Source: Escherichia coli O157 typing phage 4
Sequence record: KP869102
Reading direction: 5' to 3' (one strand)
Length of the DNA: 64,000 bases
Part shown: in pieces, positions 1 to 33,065 of the stretch
Position numbering within the stretch: the first letter of the stretch is position 1
How the letters are laid out: each line of letters begins with the position of its first letter
The notes under the pieces: generated by a model
What the model was told of the DNA's origin: nothing
Database searches by the model: none
Seen by the model: the letters and a program-made list of their open reading frames with translations, nothing else
Translations under genes and position numbers: made by a program

Positions 1-893
1 TGAGCATACTCTTTCTTAAGCTCAATGGTGACTACGTGCAGTGTTTTAGCCACGCCCAGTGGGTCGTCTACCTTAAACCCGCGATCCAGGATGATCTGCA
101 ACGCATTGATGCTATGCCCCGTTTCCACACCGATAGGGTCGTAAGAGGATTTACGCTTGCCACCAGAGCCTTGAGTGCCGTTCTCTGCCTTAGGAGGATA
201 GGCCTTGAAACCACTGATAATGTTTCCGGTGTCTTTGTCAACAATGGCTGCAACACGACCACCTACCACCAGGTCTTTAAGCTGCTCATCAGTTACAACC
301 ATAGCACCTTCGCCAATCTTGTGGTCATTAACAGTAACCACGTTGCCAACAATCTGAGTCACATCACCATAGATGCGTAAAACGTCCTGATTGGCATTCT
401 GCTGAGGTTTCTGCTTCTGGCCTTGTGATTGTGCACCTTGTTGCTGTTTTTGCTGCTGAGTCGCTGCTGGAGCCTCTCCTACACCCAGCTTAACCATCTT
501 AGCCAGTGAGCCTTTGTAATAGGTCTTACCGTTATGCTCGTTTGCCTTCAAAGGAATATTTACGATCCATCCTGGCGTTACGGTTTCCCACTTGTCATCA
601 ATCTTAACAGAGACAGAGTCTTGATGCCCCGGTTTAAGCAGCTTATCACCCATGCTGATCCAGACTTCTTCACCGCCTTGAAGCAGGTTATCAGAGGAAT
701 CCAGTTCAGAAATCAGTAAAGAGATAGTGTGGCTGGATTCAATTTTCTTACCTTGCCACACGGTGGTTTTAATACCTGTTGCAGGATCAGCCCCTTTAAT
801 AGGTTTAATGCTAACACGCTTGATCATGCCGTGAGCCAGTAAAACAGTTTCACGCGGATTCATCGGGTTAGCGAATTGTTGAATAACGCTCAT
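1..893 (-). CDS. hypothetical protein with Gln-rich linker, C-terminus outside window; possible replication-associated DNA-binding protein
   Basis: Manual minus-strand translation from ATG at 893-891 (RBS AAGGAGA upstream) stays open to position 1; absent from ORF track because no stop lies in the window; heads the replication block. Confidence 0.5.
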   Translation of the reverse strand, partial: MSVIQQFANPMNPRETVLLAHGMIKRVSIKPIKGADPATGIKTTVWQGKKIESSHTISLLISELDSSDNLLQGGEEVWISMGDKLLKPGHQDSVSVKIDDKWETVTPGWIVNIPLKANEHNGKTYYKGSLAKMVKLGVGEAPAATQQQKQQQGAQSQGQKQKPQQNANQDVLRIYGDVTQIVGNVVTVNDHKIGEGAMVVTDEQLKDLVVGGRVAAIVDKDTGNIISGFKAYPPKAENGTQGSGGKRKSSYDPIGVETGHSINALQIILDRGFKVDDPLGVAKTLHVVTIELKKEYA

Positions 894-16120: not shown

Positions 16121-16130
16121 NNNNNNNNNN
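16121..16130. other. assembly gap (N10)
   Basis: Run of 10 N. Confidence 0.95.
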
Positions 16131-16440
16131 CTCAATGGTGACTACGTGCAGTGTTTTAGCCACGCCCAGTGGGTCGTCTACCTTAAACCCGCGATCCAGG
16201 ATGATCTGCAACGCATTGATGCTATGCCCCGTTTCCACACCGATAGGGTCGTAAGAGGATTTACGCTTGCCACCGGAGCCTTGAGTGCCGTTCTCTGCCT
16301 TAGGGGGATAGGCTTTGAAACCACTGATAATGTTTCCGGTGTCTTTGTCAACAATGGCTGCAACACGACCACCTACCACCAGATCTTTAAGCTGCTCATC
16401 GGTGACAACCATAGCACCTTCGCCAATCTTGTGGTCATTG
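16131..16440. repeat. 310-bp near-identical copy of window 21-330 (synonymous variant contig)
   Basis: By-eye alignment: about 6-7 substitutions; track translation of 16098-16454 (-) is identical to my translation of 21-330 (-). Confidence 0.85.
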
Positions 16441-16450
16441 NNNNNNNNNN
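16441..16450. other. assembly gap (N10)
   Basis: Run of 10 N. Confidence 0.95.
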
Positions 16451-16605
16451 GCACGATTGCATACCTTTGACAGATAATCTCATTACAGAGCGTTTAAGAG
16501 CTTCCTACAAACAAATCTCTCTTTCGAGCGTAGCGAGAACGCACGTCCGTTTTGACCCAAATCACCATACGCTCGGATTTTAACCAAACCCTCGCGGCGT
16601 TTCTA

Positions 16606-16634
16606 TTGACACATTACCGCTCCAGTGATAATAT
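16606..16634 (+). promoter_or_regulatory. sigma70-type promoter (TTGACA-17-TAATAT)
   Basis: -35 TTGACA at 16606-16611, 17-nt spacer, -10 TAATAT at 16629-16634; ATG at 16667 follows. Confidence 0.5.
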
Positions 16635-16666
16635 CCACACATAGTTTGTAGAATATGGGGTACACT

Positions 16667-16756
16667 ATGAGAACATTGTCCGAAGTTTTGGTGGTGATCC
16701 TGATGATCATTACGTCCATAGCGGCTGTTGCCGGAATACTCACGGGTGGAACATGA
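16667..16756 (+). CDS. hypothetical 29-aa hydrophobic micropeptide
   Basis: Manual ORF MRTLSEVLVVILMIITSIAAVAGILTGGT just downstream of the promoter; weak RBS. Confidence 0.35.
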   Translation: MRTLSEVLVVILMIITSIAAVAGILTGGT

Positions 16757-16965
16757 TAAACACACATGCATCTGAAGAGACATCCAAAGGAGTGACTATA
16801 TGTCCCTTGGCTGAGCCAGTGAAAGAGGAAAACTTCGATTCTGAAGATTCTCCATCTTCGCTCCAGGTAGATCCTGAGGCTGATGACCTAACGTGGGAAG
16901 ACATCGTAGATATCTGGTTCTCTATTATGCCTGAGCACGAAGAGTTCAGGGGTGGTAGACTATGA
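16753..16965 (+). CDS. hypothetical acidic protein
   Basis: ORF track 70 aa; same strand as promoter; no clear RBS. Confidence 0.3.
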   Translation: MINTHASEETSKGVTICPLAEPVKEENFDSEDSPSSLQVDPEADDLTWEDIVDIWFSIMPEHEEFRGGRL

Positions 16966-17086
16966 AGCACCGAGCCCACACAGGTTCCTCATGCTAAAGC
17001 ATGGCCTGAAGAGGCAAACGTGCATAATTCCTGTACATTGGGACGTATAAAACCCTGTTCACATTCTCATTTCCAGAGGAGATTTC

Positions 17087-17302
17087 ATGAAGATAGAAAT
17101 ATTTGGTGGAGCTGACAATACTCGTGGCCTGATTTACCTTGAATTCGATGAATCATACCTGCCAGAGGTGTTAAATATGGACTCTGTTGCTGATGCTTTG
17201 GGAGTAAGTCCTAAAGATCTCTACTCTGGTGCTGAGATTGATGGTTGGGAGGAGACCATGAACATTGATTTCAGTGAAGTAGGTGATGAACCACTGGACT
17301 GA
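17087..17302 (+). CDS. hypothetical acidic protein
   Basis: ORF track 71 aa; RBS AGGAGA upstream of ATG. Confidence 0.5.
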   Translation: MKIEIFGGADNTRGLIYLEFDESYLPEVLNMDSVADALGVSPKDLYSGAEIDGWEETMNIDFSEVGDEPLD

Positions 17303-18142
17303 CACACAATTAGCTACCCGGCTAAAGTGCTGGGAGCACCTATAACACATCTTTCAACTAAATTTCCTACCACCACAATCACTTACCTCCCACACATGAC
17401 TGTTTGCTTGTTTAGTGAGCAGTCATGCCTTGACATTCTTGCCTATCCTGATAAAATTAAGTTCTTCTCTTTTCTTTTACCGAGTAATTCGGGTTTTCTG
17501 TTCTCTTCGGTTTGAAGGGGTATGGAGATACACCTGAGTGAACAGGGTGAACAACCGAACATTTGGCTATGGCATTAGCATGGCGAAGCGGACGGGTGAC
17601 GAAAGAGGGGCCGGAGGACACCAGTCACTGCCATATGGTATATGGGTGATAACCTGAAGAGTCTGAATAAGTGTTTAAGTACCAGTCAGAGGAAAAGGTG
17701 AATGGTAGCCGAAGGGGGAGGGGGGTTTCTTGTATCTTTAATTTGTATATTATGTATACACTTGTAAACCAATCTCATTTGAATTTGTTTACCACACAAA
17801 GTGGATAGAGACAAATATTACCTATTAAACTTGAATTATTTATAGAAAATACCACAACACTACTTAAGTCTTTGATTTTACACACAAATCCTGCAGATAT
17901 TCACCCTCCATATTTAACATACTTGTAACATATTCCATACTCTACCTGCCCGATCAATTCACCCAACTACATCCCCATATTTTCCCTGTCTGTACTACCC
18001 CTGCCCCGCCGGGAGTCCCGTCATATCTGGCTTTCCAGCAAATATCACACCCACAAATATCATTGCCTGAAGAGGGTTTCGTCCCATAATACATGCCTTA
18101 CCTGAAGAGCGCTTCATATACCCCGTAAATTTTTTAATTGAC

Positions 18143-18172
18143 CCCCTCCCCGCCGCCGGAGGGGTCGGCTTT
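18143..18172 (+). terminator. possible intrinsic terminator hairpin (weak T-run)
   Basis: Stem CCCCTCC/GGAGGGG with loop CCGCCGCC followed by TCGGCTTTTCC. Confidence 0.25.
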
Positions 18173-18719
18173 TCCCACACAGACCTGAAGAGTCAGCCAG
18201 AAATATCTGAATGGACCCAATTCTGCCCTGTTATGAGCCGTAGCGACTGGAGTGCTGCCAGGCGGACGAAATGGGAATACTTCTCATTCTTATAACAATT
18301 CTCAAATATCGAGGCAGTGAGGCAAATTAATAGGTAAGGCCGTTCACATAGTGGCACAACATTTGCAGTCTATCTGATGTGGTTGAATGAGAATACCTAT
18401 CATTGTGAGAATAGTTATCATTACGGGCAATTTAACATAATACCCATTATGCGCACCACTGGCGATACATACAGGGATTGATAACATGAGTTACTGTTTA
18501 CGCATATAACAATTATATTTCTTATCATTTGTGTGGGATATAGTTAGCAGCCGATAGATTAGATATTGACCTGCGGACTTCTGACCGTCTAGACGTCTAA
18601 ACGCCCACACAACAAGGCTTATACATACATCGCTGAATGTAAACATGGCCGCAAAAATGCTACCATACAAGATTGTAAATTTTTCATGCAGCACTTGACA
18701 AAGAGGAGAAAAACTTGTC

Positions 18720-18762
18720 TGACACTTTAGACATACTGGTGACACAATATGACACTTTAGAC
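18720..18762. repeat. direct repeat, 2 x TGACACTTTAGAC
   Basis: Identical 13-mers at 18720-18732 and 18750-18762. Confidence 0.8.
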
Positions 18763-18779
18763 TTAATTGACATGCCTGA

Positions 18780-18956
18780 CTGTTTACGCTGTCACTATTC
18801 GCGCTATTACTATTCACTCCCTTTACTGTTCACGCTCTTACTGTTTACATGCTTAATGGTTTACATGCTTAATAGACTGCATGTCTAATAGTTTACATAG
18901 CTAACTGTTCACATACTTATCATTTACATGATTGACTGTTTACACAGAGATGATAA
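18780..18956. repeat. iteron-like array of TGTTTAC(A) motifs, including a tandem 16-bp unit
   Basis: (C)TGTTTAC at 18782, 18843, 18859, 18891, 18948 plus variants CATTTACAT, CTGTTCACAT, CTTTACTG; GTTTACATGCTTAATG twice in tandem at 18843-18874. Confidence 0.75.
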
Positions 18957-18963
18957 GCCATGA

Positions 18964-19234
18964 CATTCGTTTGCATGACAATAATTAACAAGATAACAAT
19001 TGACAAGCTAACAGCCAACAAGCTGACAATTAACTTGTTTACAATAGATGACATAATATAAAAGCAGGGCAACTATTAGAAGATCTATAGTTGCCTTGCT
19101 TGTTATGTCATGATTAACTAAATACAAGGCAACTATGATCTGATTAATAGTTTGCAAACAAACTATCACGGGGGTGATGGTTACTGCTTTTATATTATGT
19201 CGCGACTCCGTCGCGCCATGCCATTCGTTTGCAT
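18964..19234. repeat. 13-bp direct repeats CATTCGTTTGCAT bracketing the palindromic element
   Basis: Copies at 18964-18976 and 19222-19234. Confidence 0.8.
19050..19201. repeat. 152-bp element bounded by perfect 18-bp inverted repeats with nested palindromes (MITE-like or cruciform-forming)
   Basis: GACATAATATAAAAGCAG at 19050-19067 is the exact reverse complement of 19184-19201; internal inverted copies of AGGCAACTAT/ATAGTTGCCT and palindrome ATAGTTTG..CAAACTAT. Confidence 0.75.
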
Positions 19235-19850
19235 AGTTGCCTTATTGTTACAGATAAAATAATTGTATTGTTAATTATTTCTTATCTTTCTATTAGTCAT
19301 CTAATGATTCCAGTCAATATAGTAATGTACAGTAAACATTAGACGACTAAAGATTTATCTGCTTATAATAACTTACCGTGACAATTTCGGACTGTTTACG
19401 AAAAATGTTGGCACCTAAGCTGATTTATGTTATGCAGTTTACACGAATAATTATTTTATGCAGGTATTGACTATTCCATTATTCTATGGTTGGAATAAAT
19501 ACTTAGCAGACTATAGAATGGTGAGCGTACGTAAATTCTGAGATCTGGCGGCTATAGTTATACTCGATTTTTCACGTAGAGCACGCTTTTGTGGTTATGT
19601 AAGTGTATGACTTATAAAGATTTTTAGTTGTTGACAAGACACTGAAGATATGCATCAGGTTAAATTTTGTGCAATAGCTGCATTACGTGCAATTTTGGAA
19701 GGAAAAACGGGTAAAAATAGCCCTGCTACCACACAATGAAAAGTTATGCAATAGTTATTTTACATGTATATTTGTACAGTGTGTGGGGTTGATGGCTCGT
19801 CAATTATTCCACTTGCCAGGTAGGGCCGTTTATGGTAGGGGGAAGATCAG

Positions 19851-19876
19851 ACAAAAAGAAAGGGGCCTAAGCCCCT
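19851..19876 (-). terminator. intrinsic terminator
   Basis: Hairpin AGGGGC-CTAA-GCCCCT preceded on plus strand by an A-run (U-run on minus transcript), just downstream of the 19896 gene end. Confidence 0.55.
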
Positions 19877-19895
19877 TGATAATTCAGTTAAAAAA

Positions 19896-20315
19896 TTATA
19901 ATGATTCGTATATTTCAAAAATCCGATTTGCCAGGTCGTTACGGTACCGGAATTTTTCATCACGTTTGATCATAAGATCTTTATAGCCGTACTCTTTAAG
20001 CACTTCATTAACTTTATGGCGGCACACCTTCATATTATCCTGAGCGTCACCAATAAACCTGTTGCTATGGTGCATGGCTTTAATTTCTTCTTCCAGGACC
20101 AGGGCAACTATGCGGACCGGATCAAGCTGATAGGCGGTAACATCAATGCGGCATTGTAAACGGCTTTTTACGTCTGCCACCGGATATACTGCAACCTCTT
20201 CCCCGTCAACATTGACAATAATTAGTTTACCATCGATTTCGAATCCTTTCGCCGCCGGACCGTGACAAAAAGCGTTATCAAAGCTATATGCCGGATTATT
20301 AGATTTAATGTTCAT
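19896..20315 (-). CDS. hypothetical protein
   Basis: ORF track 139 aa; RBS GAGGTAAAAACACC before ATG. Confidence 0.5.
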   Translation of the reverse strand: MNIKSNNPAYSFDNAFCHGPAAKGFEIDGKLIIVNVDGEEVAVYPVADVKSRLQCRIDVTAYQLDPVRIVALVLEEEIKAMHHSNRFIGDAQDNMKVCRHKVNEVLKEYGYKDLMIKRDEKFRYRNDLANRIFEIYESL

Positions 20316-20354
20316 GGTGTTTTTACCTCTTAGTTAATTTTCTTACAACTTCCC

Positions 20355-20383
20355 TTTAAAAAAGAATATAGCAAAACTGCCGA
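20355..20383 (-). promoter_or_regulatory. sigma70-type promoter (TTGACA-17-TATATT on minus strand)
   Basis: Reverse complement gives TTGACA, 17-nt spacer, TATATT upstream of the 20315 start. Confidence 0.45.
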
Positions 20384-20460
20384 TCCTTGTCAATAAGGAT
20401 AGCATAATTTTTATGTGATCAAGGGGCTTTATTGCCCCCCTGACCATGTAACTTGTTGTA

Positions 20461-20724
20461 TTATTTGTTATTCATCCAGTTTTCCCAAGCTGCCTGATAA
20501 TCTGCTTCACTGCGGCGGATCTCTTCTTGCTCTTCAAGTCGGATCTCTTCTTCCAGGTACCCCAGGATATCGGCTTTTTTGGTCTGGCGTAACATCCAAT
20601 CATCTTTTTTACGGGTAAAGATCTTATATGCTTTCTCGCAAACCTCTTTTTTGCTACCTTTTTGGACTTCAAGAACTTTGTAGGCCATGTACTGAACTAG
20701 TTTGAGCTGATCAAGACGTTTCAT
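20461..20724 (-). CDS. hypothetical protein
   Basis: ORF track 87 aa; RBS AGAGGT; preferred over the overlapping 20472-20672 frame. Confidence 0.5.
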   Translation of the reverse strand: MKRLDQLKLVQYMAYKVLEVQKGSKKEVCEKAYKIFTRKKDDWMLRQTKKADILGYLEEEIRLEEQEEIRRSEADYQAAWENWMNNK

Positions 20725-20784
20725 GATGTTTACCTCTTTATGCGGTTCTGATTAGTGGGCCTTTTGGCCCGTGTCATTATCTTA

Positions 20785-21057
20785 TTACTTATGGCGGCAG
20801 AATTCAAGCGTTTTTAATTGATAATCTTCCTCAGCCTGGAGTACGACCGCCTCGATCATTTCGTTGGCATTGTTAAAGCCATAACCTTTAGCGAAATCAT
20901 CCGCGCCACCTTCGTGATCATGTTCTGCGTTCATCGCTTCCACAAAATGGAATTCCAAATTGTTGAGGTAGGGGCTTGATGTTCCGTCCTCTTTTTCGAT
21001 GAGATCCCAAATAGCATTAAAACGTGATTCTACTTCTTGATTAATCCAGCTTGACAC
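20785..21057 (-). CDS. hypothetical protein
   Basis: ORF track 90 aa. Confidence 0.5.
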   Translation of the reverse strand: MSSWINQEVESRFNAIWDLIEKEDGTSSPYLNNLEFHFVEAMNAEHDHEGGADDFAKGYGFNNANEMIEAVVLQAEEDYQLKTLEFCRHK

Positions 21058-21268
21058 AGTGTTTTCCTCTCTTCTGGTTGTTGTGTGGGCACTTTTGCCC
21101 CTTCAAGATAAATGTTACCCCACCCCATGGCAGATGTCAACGGTTTTTATAGTTCTTATATGACAGGCAGGCCCGGTGATTGTCTCCCCCCGTCGCCAGG
21201 TGCCTGCCGTGAAACAAGTATAACAAAAAACAGGACCATTGCAAGCCCTGTTTTGTAGTTTATAAATA

Positions 21269-21460
21269 TTATATTTTTTCGCCTATGTAGTCCGGTCGGT
21301 TTTTCTCTGTCATGCGCTTTAGCAATTCTTGCATGTTGCTTATGGCTTGTAGTGTATCCCCTTCCAGGCTTGAATCGACATAATCAGGATCGTCTATGAC
21401 CTTTCTATGATTATGATAACGCAGTACCGCCAATACCTTTCTGACTTGTTCGATATTCAT
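21269..21460 (-). CDS. hypothetical protein
   Basis: ORF track 63 aa. Confidence 0.45.
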   Translation of the reverse strand: MNIEQVRKVLAVLRYHNHRKVIDDPDYVDSSLEGDTLQAISNMQELLKRMTEKNRPDYIGEKI

Positions 21461-21472
21461 TTTTACCGCTCT

Positions 21473-21607
21473 TTAAAACAAGGTGCCAACCGTTTCCAAT
21501 AGATCACTGACTGCCAGGACAATACCGATCAGCACATATCTAACCATAAGGGGAAAGAGCGCCAATATTGCCACCACAATCCCCAAGGTGATAATTATCT
21601 TTCTCAT
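21473..21607 (-). CDS. hypothetical 44-aa membrane peptide
   Basis: Manual ORF MRKIIITLGIVVAILALFPLMVRYVLIGIVLAVSDLLETVGTLF; below the track length cutoff; abuts the upstream gene. Confidence 0.35.
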   Translation of the reverse strand: MRKIIITLGIVVAILALFPLMVRYVLIGIVLAVSDLLETVGTLF

Positions 21608-21609
21608 GG

Positions 21610-21903
21610 TTAACGGTTCACGTAAGTTTTCCCGTTCACGGTTATGGGCAGATCCTCCAGGTCTGGATCTTCCTTAAGGTCGCGAGCAAGCTCACCGCAC
21701 CGGATACCCTCGAATCCGTAGTACTCTGTTGTGCCGTCCTTAAAAGTTTTAGCGGCAAGGCATAAGCGATAAGTAACCCCGATTTGATTGACGGCATGAA
21801 TATCCGTTAGATTAACCTCTTTTGCCAGCTCTTTAGCCATTACAGGCGCATTAAGTCCAACAACCAGGGCAACCACTGCGATCATCTTTTTCATTGTGTC
21901 CAT
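21610..21903 (-). CDS. hypothetical secreted protein (N-terminal signal peptide)
   Basis: 97 aa; N-terminus MKKMIAVVALVVGLNAPVMA. Confidence 0.55.
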   Translation of the reverse strand: MDTMKKMIAVVALVVGLNAPVMAKELAKEVNLTDIHAVNQIGVTYRLCLAAKTFKDGTTEYYGFEGIRCGELARDLKEDPDLEDLPITVNGKTYVNR

Positions 21904-21985
21904 CCTCTTTCTGCTACGTTTAAGGCGGCGGTAACCGCCTGTTTATGCTTTGTTGGTTAATTTTCGGGTATAGGTATAAATTAAA

Positions 21986-22201
21986 CTATGCTGTACGCTC
22001 AACTATAACAACGGCTTGAGGGATCTCACCTTCAACCACTATCAAGGCTTTTTTCTGCGTGATAGATATCTTTACCCGCTTCAGCGTGGCGGTAAAATCT
22101 TTCATTTCGTCACGTGGTGTTTTAGTGCAATACCAGATCTCAGGCTTGCCGATCTGTAAGTTGCGTAAAAATTCTGTTTTGCCTGTTTTGTTAGTGATCA
22201 T
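21986..22201 (-). CDS. hypothetical protein
   Basis: ORF track 71 aa. Confidence 0.45.
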   Translation of the reverse strand: MITNKTGKTEFLRNLQIGKPEIWYCTKTPRDEMKDFTATLKRVKISITQKKALIVVEGEIPQAVVIVERTA

Positions 22202-22210
22202 TTGGCAACC

Positions 22211-22315
22211 TCACCCGATACCGTTGGAAGACAAGATCGCATTAGCCATGGTTGCAATCAGGCCAATACCCAGGGCAATAACCAAGATCACTGCATCGAT
22301 TAATTTCTGTTTCAT
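22211..22315 (-). CDS. hypothetical 34-aa membrane peptide
   Basis: Manual ORF MKQKLIDAVILVIALGIGLIATMANAILSSNGIG; weak RBS. Confidence 0.35.
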   Translation of the reverse strand: MKQKLIDAVILVIALGIGLIATMANAILSSNGIG

Positions 22316-22392
22316 GGTGTTTATTCTCTTCTGTTAGTAACCTTATTCATGGGGCCGCTACCACAGCCCCAAGGTAAGGCAGCTATGTGCTT

Positions 22393-22638
22393 TTAGTGTT
22401 TCATTCCAACCATCGCGGCACGGATCGCCGTAGTGCTGTACTTGAAGCCGTCCGGGGTCTTATCTTGTCCGGTTAGCTCCAGAAAAAGCATCATATCCCG
22501 CGCCGCATCATTACGATTAGCATTGGCGTTAATAAAGCCTTGGGCCAACCGGTACAATGACTCATCGTTATTAATCCAAAGGCTTACATTCCAATGAGTT
22601 TTGTTTTTGTAACCGTTATAACCTTTATTGCTTTTCAT
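22393..22638 (-). CDS. hypothetical protein
   Basis: ORF track 81 aa. Confidence 0.5.
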   Translation of the reverse strand: MKSNKGYNGYKNKTHWNVSLWINNDESLYRLAQGFINANANRNDAARDMMLFLELTGQDKTPDGFKYSTTAIRAAMVGMKH

Positions 22639-22729
22639 GGTGTTTACCTCTTCTTTGTTCCAGGTGGCGGATCATTCTACCACCTTATGTATTATGCTTT
22701 GTTAGATGGTTGTTTGTTGTCAAACTATT

Positions 22730-22909
22730 TTACCGATAATCATCATATGCTTTATTTACCTGGCGAATATAACATTCAAAAGCCAAATCAATAGATTTAT
22801 ATTCACGGATATACTCACCATAGGAAACCACATACATTTCTATAGCTTCCTCATATGCGAGGAGAATAGAATCTAAGCCTACGATCTCAGTCTTTGCAAT
22901 AATAGCCAT
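22730..22909 (-). CDS. hypothetical 59-aa protein
   Basis: Manual ORF MAIIAKTEIVGLDSILLAYEEAIEMYVV... with RBS AAGAGGA upstream. Confidence 0.45.
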   Translation of the reverse strand: MAIIAKTEIVGLDSILLAYEEAIEMYVVSYGEYIREYKSIDLAFECYIRQVNKAYDDYR

Positions 22910-22985
22910 GATTTTTTATCCTCTTTGTGGTTGGTGGGGTTCGTTGCCCCCTTTGATTTATATATTACAGTCTTATATGGTCATG

Positions 22986-23219
22986 TCAACTATTTTCAAA
23001 AAATTTTTCTGCTGTGATATTCTTCCCGGTAGGGTTCGCTACTTTCAAAATTTTATCATGCACTGGACGCCCAAAAGAATAAGCGCCGTACACAGTAAAC
23101 CAATAATCGCCGTCAGGTTGTACTATTACTGCCGCATATGGTACGCCTTTTTCGTTTTTGCTGACAAAATAGATCACGTTGCCATTAATAGCCTCGGCGC
23201 GTTTAATTTGTTCCATCAT
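22986..23219 (-). CDS. hypothetical protein
   Basis: ORF track 77 aa. Confidence 0.5.
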   Translation of the reverse strand: MMEQIKRAEAINGNVIYFVSKNEKGVPYAAVIVQPDGDYWFTVYGAYSFGRPVHDKILKVANPTGKNITAEKFFENS

Positions 23220-23275
23220 GATGATTTGCCTCTCTTTATTTTCATAATTGGGGGGCCTTTTCGGCCCCGCCAGGT

Positions 23276-23626
23276 TTATTTATTGATAGCGTGCAGCGGG
23301 AAAGGTACGCCAGGTTGATAGATAACCTTTACAACCTCATCAGGACAAAAGAAGTTGCAGAACTCACCGCAATAGGCCTCATCCTCTTTCAACTCTTCAT
23401 CAACATACTCAAAAAAGTAGTCGATGCTTGGATAATCTTGACCAGGGTTATAATCAACCATAGTGAGGACCAGTTCAAGATCATTGCGGATGATATGCAT
23501 ACCAGCTTTTAAATACTTCGCTTCCATTTTTACTACATCGCCAGCGGTAACAATAGCCATGGTTTTAACTCCTGTTTCTGTTAATGATTGGAGGCATAAC
23601 CCCCCTCGACAACTCTTATTATCCAT
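23276..23626 (-). CDS. hypothetical protein
   Basis: ORF track 116 aa. Confidence 0.5.
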   Translation of the reverse strand: MDNKSCRGGLCLQSLTETGVKTMAIVTAGDVVKMEAKYLKAGMHIIRNDLELVLTMVDYNPGQDYPSIDYFFEYVDEELKEDEAYCGEFCNFFCPDEVVKVIYQPGVPFPLHAINK

Positions 23627-23785
23627 ATTGTAGGGCTTGATGCAAGTACTTCTTTAAAAAATTTTTAAGTGCCTTGGAGGCCGCTGTAACGCCAAAATAA
23701 TAAAGGCCATGCAACCGCATAGCCTTTATGTGATTATATCGCTGCAGGCCCTGCTAGGGGCCTTATTTTGCATCATTTGCCGGAA

Positions 23786-24094
23786 CTATACAGAGAAAAC
23801 ATCGTTCACAATAGCGATCACAATGCCGCCCACCTTGTCACGGTCAACAATGCACAAATCACCATAGATCATGTGGTAGTCTGGATGATCTTTCACGGAA
23901 TAGTCAATGAGCGTTTTCTTGTCGTCCAGCTTTGTAACTTCCATTCTCATAACGATATGAGAATCATCAAAGGCATTATTCCGAAAAGTCATAGCCTGAC
24001 CACCAGGGCACCCAGTGATCTCCACTTCCACACCGTCTACGATCTGACCATCAAAGAAATAAAGATTATTAGCCAGGATAAACATGTTTATCAC
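23786..24094 (-). CDS. hypothetical protein
   Basis: ORF track 102 aa. Confidence 0.5.
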   Translation of the reverse strand: MINMFILANNLYFFDGQIVDGVEVEITGCPGGQAMTFRNNAFDDSHIVMRMEVTKLDDKKTLIDYSVKDHPDYHMIYGDLCIVDRDKVGGIVIAIVNDVFSV

Positions 24095-24177
24095 TCCTTG
24101 TTAACTGCGTGTTATTTTACCACGATTAAAATTTACTTTACTGATGGCCCTGGCGTCAAGGCCATCTAAAAATAAAT

Positions 24178-24378
24178 TTACAGGCCTACAATCTCTTTGA
24201 TTCGTTTAACTGCTGCCTCAGCGCCTTGGGGGTAGAAATTATGGTAACCGATCACGCGAGTGATACTAATCGCAGTTTGATGATCTTCATAATAGCCCTT
24301 GAAGATTTCTTGACCGTCAATCAGCACGGCAATTTTTTCTTCTTTTTTGAAGTTAATAACGCGGATATTGTTGCTCAT
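24178..24378 (-). CDS. hypothetical protein
   Basis: ORF track 66 aa. Confidence 0.45.
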   Translation of the reverse strand: MSNNIRVINFKKEEKIAVLIDGQEIFKGYYEDHQTAISITRVIGYHNFYPQGAEAAVKRIKEIVGL

Positions 24379-24493
24379 TTTGTTTCTCCTTTCTGGTTTT
24401 TGTGTTGGTGGGGATTAGCTCCCCGTTGATTATTATTATCCATATTTCGGACCGGATTGCAACACCCCGGAAGAAAAATTTTTTGAAAAAGTT

Positions 24494-24517
24494 AGGCCCC
24501 CAGGGATCGGGGGCCGT
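24494..24517 (-). terminator. intrinsic terminator
   Basis: Hairpin GGCCCCC-AGGGATC-GGGGGCC preceded on plus strand by an A-rich run. Confidence 0.5.
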
Positions 24518-24519
24518 TA

Positions 24520-24639
24520 TCAGTTACTTACAGCGATAAAATACATCCCTACGCCTAACAATATTTCAAGGGCGATGATCTCAAGCCATACCATAACCCG
24601 GCGCACCTTATCGGTGCGGGGCTTATCCTTGGTTGTCAT
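24520..24639 (-). CDS. hypothetical 39-aa membrane peptide
   Basis: Manual ORF MTTKDKPRTDKVRRVMVWLEIIALEILLGVGMYFIAVSN; strong RBS AGGGGGAGA. Confidence 0.45.
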   Translation of the reverse strand: MTTKDKPRTDKVRRVMVWLEIIALEILLGVGMYFIAVSN

Positions 24640-24881
24640 CGTCTCCCCCTTTCATCCTGGTAGTAGTGACGTGGTTTACAATGGCCCCCAGGAGTACCAT
24701 CACCACGCACATCACAAGAAAAATTATCTCTGTCGTTGTTCGATCCATTGTTATAAAATTCCTTAAGATCAGGCCTGAAAATAAAGCGTTCGTTATTGAA
24801 TCCATCACGCCAGGCGGCTGGCTTCAAATCTTCATCAAAGGGATTAATTAACGTGGTATTATTTAAACGGCTGGCCCACAT
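24636..24881 (-). CDS. hypothetical low-complexity protein
   Basis: ATG at 24881 with GAGAGGAA RBS; preferred over the RBS-less overlapping frame 24623-24808. Confidence 0.4.
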   Translation of the reverse strand: MWASRLNNTTLINPFDEDLKPAAWRDGFNNERFIFRPDLKEFYNNGSNNDRDNFSCDVRGDGTPGGHCKPRHYYQDERGRR

Positions 24882-25263
24882 ATTTTCTATTCCTCTCAAA
24901 TAGGCGATCCGCCTCAGTTAAACAAATCTCATGGGCGTGATCTCTGGTTTTAGCTTCATCGAAAACCTGTTGTGCAAGGCTGCAGCGTAGGGAGACTGGA
25001 AGATCACTATAATAGGCGTTGACAAATGTTTGCGCGTCATACAGGTCGGAAAATACTTTACCCTTTCTATTATCGCCTTTGTCAACAATTGCAAGGATAA
25101 CAAGTACAATAGTTGCAACCACCCCCAGGAAAATAGATATAATAAACCATAAAAAGGCGGATCTACCCATCTTGCCAGCGATCCAGGCGTTAAACAAGGC
25201 AACTAATACGGCCAAAATAATAAATTCCATTCTATGTACCTCTTTTGCAGTTCTGTTTAACAA
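24859..25263 (-). CDS. hypothetical membrane protein
   Basis: 134 aa; two hydrophobic helices (FIILAVLVALFNAWIAG and FLWFIISIFLGVVATIVLVILAIV). Confidence 0.5.
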   Translation of the reverse strand: MLNRTAKEVHRMEFIILAVLVALFNAWIAGKMGRSAFLWFIISIFLGVVATIVLVILAIVDKGDNRKGKVFSDLYDAQTFVNAYYSDLPVSLRCSLAQQVFDEAKTRDHAHEICLTEADRLFERNRKYVGQPFK

Positions 25264-25294
25264 TAAGGCGGCAAATATGCCGCCTGTTACCTGA

Positions 25295-25675
25295 TTAAAA
25301 ATTATCGCCGTAAATCTTTCCGCTTTCTGCCCACACCACCACGCGGGGCATACTATCCCACACGTCTTGTTTTAGATTGAGCGCGTGCAATTCTTCGGTG
25401 GTGCCCATACCAGGCACGGGCTGATTGTATACTGCAAAACGACCACCTGCATAATCATAGGCCAGGGTTAAATCACACTGAATCATCTTTTTGATCATGG
25501 CGTTGAGCATAGCGTTAGCCGCATACTGGTCACGTTTTAAAGGCAACTCTTTGATTAGTTTGCGATAGTTTTCAATGTGATCGCACACTGTTTCACGTGG
25601 AAGATCTTTCATATCCTCGCGAAAGGTAACCAGGTTAAACATAACGGTGTCAATAGCTTTAGTAGTGTTTTTCAT
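25295..25675 (-). CDS. hypothetical protein
   Basis: ORF track 126 aa. Confidence 0.5.
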   Translation of the reverse strand: MKNTTKAIDTVMFNLVTFREDMKDLPRETVCDHIENYRKLIKELPLKRDQYAANAMLNAMIKKMIQCDLTLAYDYAGGRFAVYNQPVPGMGTTEELHALNLKQDVWDSMPRVVVWAESGKIYGDNF

Positions 25676-25766
25676 AATGTTTTCCTCTTTGTTTTGTGTG
25701 GGGCAAACGTCTTGCCCCCCCTTGAGTTTTAATATAGCAAGTTTTTAGATTATTGCAACACTTTAT

Positions 25767-26295
25767 TTATGAAAAACTCATCTCTCCATATTCATCCACA
25801 TCAAACCGCCAATCATTGGCCTCAATAAGGCCGATCAGGTTTTCGGTAGTGAACTGTTCTAGATAGGCCTCCTCCAGGTCTACGTAAACCTTGCGGGATA
25901 GCTCCCGTACCGTCTCGGTGATCAGCTCTTCCAGGTCTTCCACTTTGTTTTCTTGTTTGGCGGTCAGATCTAGCCAGGTGGTATCAATGTATCCGCTTAC
26001 AGTGTTTTCATGGCTGTAATGGCTGTACTTGTCGCGTTCAATACTGGCTGATAACTCGCCATCGTGCATTGTGCCAAACAAGTGACGAATTGATCGGAAC
26101 TTGGTCAGGGCCTTTACTTTACGCAAGAATTTTTCTAAATCCACGTTTTCAGCACTGATTGACGCGCCGTCACCCTGGCACCAAAAGCCGGACCAATGTA
26201 CATCGGTATCTTCAAGGCCGTACTCTGGAAAAACTTGCTCTTTATAATATTCAATTACACTTTCTGCGAAAAAATCCTCTCCGCTGTGTTCTTCT
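25767..26295 (-). CDS. hypothetical protein, N-terminus cut off by the assembly gap
   Basis: Track reports 125 aa from an internal GTG, but the frame stays open upstream to the N-run at 26296. Confidence 0.5.
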
Positions 26296-26305
26296 NNNNN
26301 NNNNN
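26296..26305. other. assembly gap (N10)
   Basis: Run of 10 N. Confidence 0.95.
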
Positions 26306-32087: not shown

Positions 32088-32983
32088 ATCCCCGCATAAA
32101 TTAAACTTGTATCAGTATACTTCTTTAACGGGTAAATATCCTGTCCGTAGATGTAGTCATTAAACACCTCATCTACCCAAAGACTGCATTTATACCCCAT
32201 CATTTCTAAAACACCCATCTCTTCATCAGTAAATTTATCACCACTTTTGCAGGATGTCAATACCTCATTTTGTACTCTTGCCAGTTCAAAAATGTTGTTA
32301 GCAATGTCACTATTAACGATCAGGTATTCACCTAAAGGGTGTGCGGCATTAAAGATGCACAGTGGGCGGTTGACGTAATAGTCCCCAGGTGTATAGAAAT
32401 TGTTGAGGTCCTTCACTAGAACATTCTTATCAGTCACTTCATTTATAACATCATGCATATCGCACATCTTTATGTGCTTGAGGATTCCATCCCCCATCAC
32501 AAAATAAAAACTTGCTGAGATACTCTCGGCATAGATCTTACTGGACCCGTTGTAGTTGTATTTTACGCGAATGCTCACGGGGGTTTTTCCTGTCGCGTTA
32601 GCCATCATCCAAAGGAACGGAAGTTCAAACTTCTCTTCTGAGGAAACAAAAGGTGAAGTTGCCAGAGATCGGAAACCTCCAGAAAAGTTGAAAGTCACAG
32701 AACCGCTCCGGCGGTATGATACCGCGTATTCTACTTTTATATCGACATACCCGTTGGAATAGGTGTGTCCTTCATTATCTAAATATGTCCACTTATCAGA
32801 CCCCGATACCAATCTACGCTCAATCACCTTCATCACTATAGGAATTAGCGGGTTGGTACAAACCGCTTTTGAAGTAGCTTTAGCATCTAAATCCTCGTAA
32901 ATTGCAGAAAGGATGTCTCCAGCTGAAAGATTGGTTGTTATATCCTGTTGCCACCGCGTACTAAAACTGTTAAGATTTGCCAT
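32084..32983 (-). CDS. hypothetical protein
   Basis: ORF track 299 aa. Confidence 0.55.
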   Translation of the reverse strand: MANLNSFSTRWQQDITTNLSAGDILSAIYEDLDAKATSKAVCTNPLIPIVMKVIERRLVSGSDKWTYLDNEGHTYSNGYVDIKVEYAVSYRRSGSVTFNFSGGFRSLATSPFVSSEEKFELPFLWMMANATGKTPVSIRVKYNYNGSSKIYAESISASFYFVMGDGILKHIKMCDMHDVINEVTDKNVLVKDLNNFYTPGDYYVNRPLCIFNAAHPLGEYLIVNSDIANNIFELARVQNEVLTSCKSGDKFTDEEMGVLEMMGYKCSLWVDEVFNDYIYGQDIYPLKKYTDTSLIYAGI

Positions 32984-33065
32984 GAGTGAGTGCTCCTATG
33001 TTAGTTTTCTTTCGAATGGGTGCACTATATCGGAGATTTAGAGTAAAGTCAACACGTTTTTGATG

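Follow-up and report, generated by a model that had tools for sequence, protein, structure and literature searches.

The closest described counterparts of the locus analyzed here are the chromosome ends of three Vequintavirus phages, Gotham, HdK5, and EdH4, and of the Klebsiella phage KPP-1 (Mydovirus). According to the accessible parts of the reports, the three Vequintavirus phages have terminal repeats of 458-459 bp, those of Gotham and HdK5 being given in PMC7471380 and PMC6563267. KPP-1 has a 514-bp repeat, which is supported by a doubling of the read coverage and by PhageTerm, whose call was "T7 type." For phage rV5, the accessible part of the genome paper shows a gray "non-coding" box of 2,604 bp at the corresponding place, with no function given there, and a change in skew at 104425-105475. 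The Murica announcement, as far as it is accessible, sets its own 2,554-bp gap beside the 2,604-bp gap of rV5. Here we describe a gene-free locus of about 2.5 kb in typing phage 4 of Escherichia coli O157 (sequence record KP869102), at positions 17303-19860 of a 64,000-nucleotide stretch of that record, which we call the window and in whose coordinates all positions are given. The locus is very probably the chromosome terminal region of this phage, that is, the concatemer junction in its replicating DNA.

The "non-coding" region of rV5 and Murica and the repeats of Gotham, HdK5, and EdH4 represent one and the same locus, with the same convergent transcription units and identical boundary sequences. 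The available portions of the rV5-group papers either mark a noncoding region or give the length of a repeat; in those portions, neither the link between the two nor the internal elements are described. To the extent of these sources, then, the locus is known in the phage group, and its internal anatomy is the new detail. As a kind of feature it is an instance of a known one, a short direct terminal repeat (DTR) with its junction, already reported in sister phages.

The locus also resembles the junctions of T7 and T3, which have exact, nonpermuted ends and a short direct repeat that is present in one copy per junction and needs to be duplicated. As in T7, short-repeat arrays flank the repeat and a promoter fires toward the junction; the T7 arrays are said to have been described by Dunn and Studier in 1983, and T7 has a phiOR promoter and a junction pause site. 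The two systems differ in that the phage studied here is a 137-kb myovirus rather than a 40-kb podovirus, its repeat measures 459 bp instead of 160 bp, and its genes run toward both ends, whereas all those of T7 run rightward. Furthermore, the promoter found here is of the host sigma-70 type, and we know of no phage RNA polymerase in the rV5-like group. Sequence similarity to T7 was not noticed, no search aimed at it having been made.

Chromosome ends of related phages map within the locus

Over positions 17303-19860, Escherichia phage JES2013 shares 99.8% identity with the phage, and most of the 121 rV5-like (Vequintavirus) records share 90-95%. When the locus was used as a query in distant blastn searches, several records were found to start or stop within it. 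The Gotham record carries annotated, mutually identical repeats at 1-459 and 136567-137025, and the HdK5 record likewise has the same 459 bp at both of its ends. Both repeats align end to end with positions 18261-18719 of the window at 92-93% identity, beginning with GGCGGACG... and finishing with ...AAAAACTTGTC. The first bases in the window, GGCGGACGAAATGGG, are matched exactly in HdK5 and are one base off in Gotham, whereas the last, CTTGACAAAGAGGAGAAAAACTTGTC, are identical in both. The records of phages bov10K2 (Hungary) and Pr121LW (USA) open exactly at 18261 and exactly at 18719, respectively.

Mapped from the ends of the Gotham and HdK5 records, the DTR of the phage would thus comprise 459 bp of the plus strand (18261-18719), with the left physical end at 18261 (GGCGGACGAAATGGG...) and the right physical end at 18719 (...AAAAACTTGTC). 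It is because the physical ends of relatives map within the locus that we assign it to the concatemer junction, in which a right-end arm (17303-18260), the DTR, and a left-end arm (18720-19860) would follow one another. As shown through these relatives, the virion DNA should be linear and nonpermuted, running from 18261 to 18719 with the 459 bp at both tips. The region would be devoid of genes because both flanking transcription units run toward the chromosome ends and stop short of the junction.

Comparable ends are found outside the genus. The KPP-1 repeat is located in an equivalent gene-sparse convergent gap, and the contig of Erwinia phage Hena1 has an identical 519 bp at both ends, starting with GACGGACAACC and ending with ...CTTGACAGGAAGATAGAAAAGTGTT.

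An earlier note, written from the sequence of the window alone, had offered three roles for the locus: a replication origin, a packaging or terminal region, or a noncoding RNA locus. The comparison with related phages that it proposed favored the second, as the termini of close relatives fall within the locus, a 459-bp repeat is present, and the end sequences are kept across genera; the relatives did not combine a lack of termini with unconserved repeats. The third role fared poorly: the search of the whole window against Rfam that the note had suggested returned no match at the gathering threshold, and no fold signal was detected.

A core and terminus motifs are conserved across genera

Inspection by eye together with word-7 blastn revealed a short block common to the window, KPP-1, and E. 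coli phage A5-4. In the window, it is represented by an invariant 27-nt core, ATTTAACATAATACCCATTATGCGCAC, on the plus strand at 18430-18456, which contains a CATAAT/ATTATG inverted repeat and occurs once in the genome. A search pattern for the core, ATTTAACATAAWACNNNTTATRCGCAC, was built from the block in these three genomes and matched 21 IMG/VR loci of this phage group, two of which are both ends of a single contig. Among them were the Hena1 contig and contigs presumed to be those of PVP-SE1, CR3, phiTE, and Ro1. By our own estimate from the information content of the pattern, a chance match is very unlikely. Beyond the genus, word-7 blastn and nhmmer recovered the core alone reliably, and distant blastn found nothing outside Vequintavirus. 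Two proteins were tried as anchors for locating the junction and rejected: the gene for the PVP-SE1 gp115-like protein lies 36 kb from the KPP-1 junction, and an 87-aa neighbor served only as far as A5-4, A73, and Alma.

Upstream of the core, the plus strand carries AAATATC boxes at 18040-18046, 18055-18061, and 18201-18207, the last of these beside the fourth copy of another box, CCTGAAGAG, and a proximal AAATATC box at 18304-18310, 43 nt inside the left terminus. The AAATATC motif was present in the upstream arm of 12 of the 14 lineages (29 copies in total, 2-4 per lineage), and nearly all copies in the zone were on the plus strand. Of the 17 sequences examined, 15 had their left terminus (whether known or inferred) 43-44 nt upstream of the AAATATC box nearest to the core; the other two, L018 and L024, were without such a box. 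The sequence at the left terminus was GCGGAC, GACGGAC, or GCATGGC, its position being physically defined in Vequintavirus, KPP-1, and Hena1. In the lineages that have AAATATC boxes, the orientation of the core was always the same and its distance to both termini was similar.

The right terminus is marked by a plus-strand motif at 18694-18719, also found once in the genome, which consists of CTTGACA followed by 17-18 purine-rich nucleotides and the cut. The pattern CTTGACA-N17/18 followed by (T/C)TAGCA or TGACA was found in 12 of 15 lineages, and in Gotham, HdK5, KPP-1, and Hena1 the DNA physically stops on the right 18-19 nt past the TTGACA hexamer, which here lies at 18695. The core and both terminus motifs are each present in single copy, and the spacing between them is kept across lineages. 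The same layout, which also includes variable arrays of short repeats beside the DTR and a perfect 16-22-bp palindrome with covarying arms, was found across at least six related genera, and the core can be considered a candidate terminase-recognition site or origin element.

Two further features were located within the DTR. At its right edge, the minus strand carries a promoter-like site that points to the core (18672-18701; TTGTCA, an 18-nt spacer, and TACAAT). Both hexamers of this site and its 18-nt spacing are kept in Vequintavirus, Mydovirus, and PVP-SE1, while the spacer sequence varies; such conservation was not seen in the Hena1 or CR3 groups. Next to the core, there are 1.9 copies of an 18-nt tandem repeat, TGAGAATACCTATCATTG (18388-18422, plus strand; Tandem Repeats Finder), at which the Naswa, magaca, and Alma records have an annotated repeat_region.

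This tandem repeat is weakly Fur-box-like. Across related genera, the density of Fur-box-like sequences in the terminal zone was about six times that of the flanking DNA, and some of them were near-perfect, for example, GATAATGATTCTCATTATC, with 1 mismatch. Such sites were found at core+355 in the presumed phiTE contig (L027), at core+31 in two loci of the CR3 group (L022 and L035), and at core+765 in KPP-1 (L012). The window's own versions, at 18388-18425, are weak. Genuine Fur boxes in the window were considered and rejected, as the best match to the 19-nt consensus has 5 mismatches and the enrichment is weak.

The right-end arm contains an ultraconserved block that starts at a promoter

A near-consensus sigma-70 promoter, consisting of TTGACA, a 16-nt spacer, and TG-n-TAAAAT, lies on the plus strand of the right-end arm at 17430-17457 and points to the DTR. 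It matches the consensus at 11 of 12 positions, has an extended -10 element, and is followed by no gene. Sites of this quality are few: the 137-kb genome has only 28 of them, this one included, most of which follow the local direction of the genes. The -35 element of the promoter is abutted by a hairpin with a 14-bp stem (17395-17427, plus strand; RNA fold, -19.1 kcal/mol; z = -5.3), which lies in a conserved bin and may serve either to terminate the plus-strand unit upstream of it or as an operator.

The promoter opens an ultraconserved block without open reading frames (ORFs), which occupies 17401-18200 on the plus strand and ends at a hairpin with a U-run. In a comparison of nine genomes, the fraction of invariant columns was 0.86-1.00 over 17401-17900. 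All 119 records were at least 95% identical in this interval, as opposed to the neighboring coding DNA, which fell below 95% in 65 of 117. No homolog of the block was found by nhmmer outside Vequintavirus. The distal hairpin is GC-rich and is followed by GGCUUUUCCC (18138-18178, plus strand; RNA fold, -16.1 kcal/mol); located about 85 nt before the left terminus, it constitutes a moderate intrinsic-terminator-like site. The conserved block stops here, and the next 50 nt are variable and contain insertions and deletions. When the arm was folded and compared with shuffled sequences, the z scores were -1.2 (279 nt), -0.2, and +0.55 (715 nt), which gives no signal of stability. We consider the block a candidate for a noncoding transcript of about 715 nt or for a signal that acts through transcription toward the junction.

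The arm also contains four plus-strand copies of CCTGAAGAG (17653-17661, 18066-18074, 18101-18109, and 18184-18192), all upstream of the left terminus. The motif CCTGAAG was found in the same, upstream arm in 7 of the 14 lineages, and a 17-mer of the window, GACCTGAAGAGTCAGCC, matches KPP-1 at 16 of its 17 positions.

The left-end arm contains variable arrays and an invariant palindrome

Just inside the left chromosome end, hypervariable arrays of short direct repeats occupy the plus strand at 18720-19034. They comprise TGACAC boxes (18720-18790), about nine ACTGTTTAC-type units with a period of 15-16 bp (18779-18945), and 3.5 units of ACAAGnTnAC with a period of 15 bp (18983-19034). Tandem Repeats Finder delineated the arrays with a period of 15-16 bp at 18779-18845, 18843-18898, and 18983-19034. 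Within the genus, conservation was lowest in the 330 bp directly past the DTR, where insertions and deletions abound (gap fraction, 0.2-0.5) and the copy number of the repeats varies.

The arrays are followed by a branched palindromic element at 19050-19201, which has perfect 18-bp outer arms (19050-19067 and 19184-19201) and nested hairpins inside. As single-stranded DNA, the segment 19030-19260 folded with an energy of -47.8 kcal/mol (z = -9.0). Within the genus, positions 19051-19250 are nearly invariant (invariant fraction, 0.86-1.0 in nine genomes). The element is bracketed by two plus-strand copies of a 20-nt direct repeat, GCCATGACATTCGTTTGCAT (18957-18976 and 19215-19234; 95% identity), and A5-4 and KPP-1 show a repeat that brackets their palindrome in an analogous way. 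Directly past the 3' arm of the palindrome lies a GC-rich plus-strand element, GCGACTCCGTCGCGCC (19202-19217); TCGCGCC was found in the downstream arm of 8 of the 14 lineages. The remainder of the left-end arm (19260-19859) is AT-rich, shows a conservation of 0.62-0.92, and had no homolog beyond the genus in an nhmmer search.

In every Vequintavirinae-type lineage examined, a perfect inverted repeat of 16-22 bp with a loop of 71-204 nt was present at the same relative place. When the arm pairs of 10 lineages were aligned, all 18 pairs were found to change on both sides, 99.4% of the cells were paired, and no G-T pair occurred; these values were reached in none of 500 shuffles. The evidence for a conserved structure lies in its recurrence at the homologous site with different sequences. 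The pairing is exclusively Watson-Crick, which favors a structure acting at the level of DNA over one acting at the level of RNA. We also considered whether the palindrome delimits an invertible segment and rejected this reading, as the segment was inverted in none of nine genomes and the flanking proteins that were scanned showed no recombinase domain.

The two arms allow the comparison with KPP-1 and Hena1 to be drawn in full. All three phages have a gene-sparse convergent gap, a left end with (G/A)CGGAC that precedes an AAATATC box by 43-44 nt, the 27-nt core, and a right end past CTTGACA-N17/18, followed by a perfect covarying palindrome and then by a GC-rich element. The right arm of KPP-1 is shorter, however (about 335 bp versus 958 bp here), and the ultraconserved block at 17401-18200 is absent from both phages. 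In addition, the boxes at their right terminus are TTAGCAA rather than TGACAC and ACTGTTTAC, and their Fur-box-like sites are clearer than those found here.

The locus is free of genes and rich in repeats

The earlier note had described the locus as dense in repeats and AT-rich stretches, and the counts agree with this description: short repeats are far above chance and the GC content dips. Five copies of ACTGTTTAC are found in the region and one in the remaining 134 kb, both strands counted (p about 2e-11). Three copies of ACCTGAAGA occur in the region and none elsewhere, while CCTGAAGAG has four copies in the region and five elsewhere in the genome (both strands). The GC content is 35% over 19001-20000, compared with about 44% elsewhere. 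No Chi sites were found near the ends.

The note had also stated that there is no credible ORF between 17303 and 19860; these boundaries proved to be right, and no ORF with a coding signature was detected between them. Coding potential was assessed by counting the variable columns at each codon position across nine Vequintavirus sequences, with the flanking genes as controls. The controls varied strongly at the third position (6/3/26 and 8/4/39 variable columns at the three codon positions). Such a bias was absent from all 22 ORFs that measure 30 aa or more and lie wholly within the region, most of which were disrupted in relatives; a 23rd ORF (19687-19986) overlaps the flanking gene and was not part of this set. 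The small ORFs that depositors have annotated in the region vary from record to record and are probably spurious gene calls. Examples are ORF155 of JES2013 (window 17995-18117, minus strand), gene 150 of Murica, F10B_0172 of Gotham, and gene 186 of Alma. No tRNA or tmRNA genes were found.

The size of the gap and the convergence of its flanking units, both claimed by the note, held as well. In JES2013, the closest annotated genome, the runner-up gap measures about 640 bp, compared with 2.5 kb here. Within the contig at 16451-26295, to which all our statements on the surroundings of the locus apply, the genes to its left lie on the plus strand and those to its right on the minus strand, both groups running toward it.

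Genomic context of the locus

This restriction follows from the structure of the record. Local alignment to the whole JES2013 genome revealed that the window is a scaffold of contigs in nonnative order, joined by runs of 10 Ns (16121-16130, 16441-16450, and 26296-26305). The first contig (1-16120) corresponds to JES2013 120854-136910 plus 1-63, and the second (16131-16439) is a 309-bp duplicate of window positions 21-329 at 98% identity. The third (16451-26295) corresponds to JES2013 101851-111695 and holds the gene-free locus; the fourth (26306-64000) corresponds to JES2013 136829-136910 plus 1-36437. Because the order of the contigs is not native, gene neighborhoods that span the joints are artifacts. 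The locus lies well within the third contig, and its immediate context is therefore genuine.

On the left, the locus is flanked by a plus-strand gene of 71 aa that ends at 17302, and on the right by a minus-strand gene of 139 aa that ends at 19896 (19896-20315). Both match PHROG families of unknown function, and the flanking proteins scanned were without known domains, recognizable initiator or recombinase domains included. The minus-strand unit is closed by an intrinsic terminator at 19860-19877 (RNA fold, -12.9 kcal/mol; z = -2.5), followed by UUUCUUUUU.

The 139-aa gene belongs to PHROG 12277. It is missing from five of the nine Vequintavirus sequences compared, Gotham and HdK5 among them; the unclassified phage A5-4 has a copy with a nucleotide identity of 77.6%. 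The gene thus behaves like an accessory one located at the end of the chromosome.

The search for relatives also returned 19 GenBank records (MG0656xx) that are titled "Campylobacter phage" and list Campylobacter jejuni as the host. These records, many of which are unannotated, are 90-94% identical to the E. coli rV5-like phage described here, and their host labels look doubtful.

A model for the terminal region

We propose that the phage terminase would recognize unique sites in the locus and cut at two fixed places. The candidate recognition sites are the 27-nt core and the AAATATC boxes on the same strand. One cut would be made 43-44 nt upstream of the proximal box and the other 18-19 nt past the TTGACA at 18695. 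With one copy of the repeat per junction and two per packaged genome, DNA synthesis must supply the second copy, as it does in T7-type phages.

The other elements can be given a place in this model more tentatively. The covarying palindrome, about 330 bp into the left-end arm, might act at the DNA level, providing a hairpin or cruciform intermediate for the duplication of the repeat or for the start of replication; in T7, duplication of the repeat involves a hairpin-containing intermediate (summarized in PMC4281155). The variable short-repeat arrays might bind a phage protein whose evolution follows that of each genus. Finally, the promoter at 17430 might send host RNA polymerase toward the junction, in the way that T7 transcribes into its own junction.

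In a more speculative and, on balance, improbable version, the terminal region would consist of two undescribed modules. One, shared by the whole family, would act at the DNA level and comprise the core, the AAATATC boxes, and the bracketed palindrome; it would duplicate the DTR via a hairpin or double as an origin. The other, specific to Vequintavirus, would be the promoter-to-terminator segment of about 715 nt, where transcription by host polymerase into the junction would license packaging, as a counterpart of the phiOR and junction-pause mechanism of T7 that relies on the host enzyme, or the RNA would act in trans.

Alternative functions of the locus

Several points weigh against a terminal region with fixed ends. 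The ends are carried over from relatives that are 92-93% identical across the repeat and not from reads of this phage. The roles of the core, boxes, and palindrome derive from position and conservation only. The loci retrieved from IMG/VR were selected for having the core, because the pattern was derived from three genomes, and the high pairing of the palindrome arms is in part a matter of construction, since the arms were found by a search for perfect inverted repeats. Moreover, PVP-SE1 and phiTE have been published as circularly permuted, with headful packaging, and PhageTerm called BpE1AUH headful, in a run on a phage-cocktail assembly. If the locus were a headful pac site, packaging would start here, the ends would be imprecise, and the genomes, as published for PVP-SE1 and phiTE, would be terminally redundant and circularly permuted. 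This we regard as highly improbable: in Vequintavirus, four sources from different laboratories agree on two exact end positions; exact repeats are also present in KPP-1 (514 bp) and Hena1 (519 bp); and the terminus motifs recur with unchanged spacing in the contigs presumed to be those of PVP-SE1 and phiTE. In place of permuted ends, the relatives, through which this point was examined, have exact and identical boundaries. Even less credence can be given to the idea that the locus consists of decayed genes or of neutral spacer DNA without a function. The absence of ORFs, the AT-rich composition, and the frequent low-complexity repeats would fit such DNA, but the idea is already contradicted by the conservation data, as parts of the locus are more conserved than the adjacent genes and the motifs and their spacing are kept across genera.

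The terminal region could at the same time house a replication origin, placed in the left-end arm (18720-19860), with its arrays, palindrome, and AT-rich DNA, and possibly including the core. We consider this possible but doubtful. Iteron origins are likewise characterized by regularly spaced direct repeats on one strand beside AT-rich DNA and a structure-forming palindrome, and here the same-strand short repeats are overrepresented (about nine ACTGTTTAC-type units plus 3.5 units with a 15-bp period), the GC content falls to 35% in 19001-20000, and the conserved, covarying palindrome, with its Watson-Crick pairs only, points to a structure at the DNA level. The promoter-like site within the DTR aims at the core, whose 3' half, TTATGCGCA, is one mismatch away from the DnaA-box consensus, TTATNCACA. 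In two IMG/VR metagenome contigs of an apparently unrelated lineage (L018 and L033), the core lies among eight DnaA boxes on the same strand; between -142 and +251 relative to the core, the core and two partial copies of it are interspersed with these boxes in an origin-like arrangement. The gene context of L033 was uninformative, an AlgH-like protein being the sole identification. Other properties of the window, however, are unlike those of an iteron origin: a single weak DnaA box is found in 2.5 kb instead of a cluster, no recognizable initiator gene adjoins the region, the iteron arrays are its least conserved part and vary in copy number, and GATC is depleted (5 sites versus about 14 expected). 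Origins usually sit where replication and transcription run the same way, whereas transcription converges on this locus. The skew change that the accessible part of the rV5 paper places at this location speaks for an origin but is confounded with the switch in gene orientation.

Rather unlikely, too, is a noncoding RNA locus whose product, a transcript of about 715 nt (approximately 17464-18178) from the promoter at 17430, would serve, for example, as a regulator or a decoy. The promoter, with its 11 of 12 matches and extended -10 element, has no ORF after it; the conserved block has the promoter and the U-run hairpin as its limits; and across 119 genomes it is more conserved than the neighboring genes. 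Against such an RNA, the region had no Rfam match, either at the gathering threshold or at E values of up to 10, where only chance-level matches to microRNAs and snoRNAs appeared; its fold energy was no better than that of shuffled sequences; the terminator is merely moderate; and no homolog was found outside the genus, within which variation is too low for a covariation test. A possible counterpart of the phiTE pseudo-ToxI was also considered and rejected: the phiTE locus is found outside the terminal region, at 106714-106772, flanked by tRNA genes and with the terminase gene downstream of it, and ToxI-like 36-nt repeats sought in the phiTE terminal locus gave no match.

Elsewhere in the window, at 32983-33060, there is a divergent promoter region at which the GC skew changes sign and which corresponds to rV5 genes 10 and 11. 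With genes running outward from it, this region would be a more natural site for an origin of replication than the terminal region, where transcription converges.

Implications for rV5-type phages

The assignment of the locus to the chromosome terminal region offers an explanation for the "non-coding" box, unexplained until now, of the rV5-type phages, a group in wide use for typing E. coli O157, for biocontrol, and for therapy. It also gives exact positions for the chromosome ends in a group where most of the approximately 120 deposited genomes have been opened arbitrarily, many of them with spurious small ORFs at this place. In the core, the boxes, the palindrome arms, and the promoter at 17430, it provides mutational targets for the study of end recognition, cutting, and duplication in a large myovirus. 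Finally, the motifs shared across genera predict exact terminal repeats in genera that have been called circularly permuted, such as those of PVP-SE1 and phiTE, and exact ends in these phages would bear on their claimed capacity for generalized transduction.

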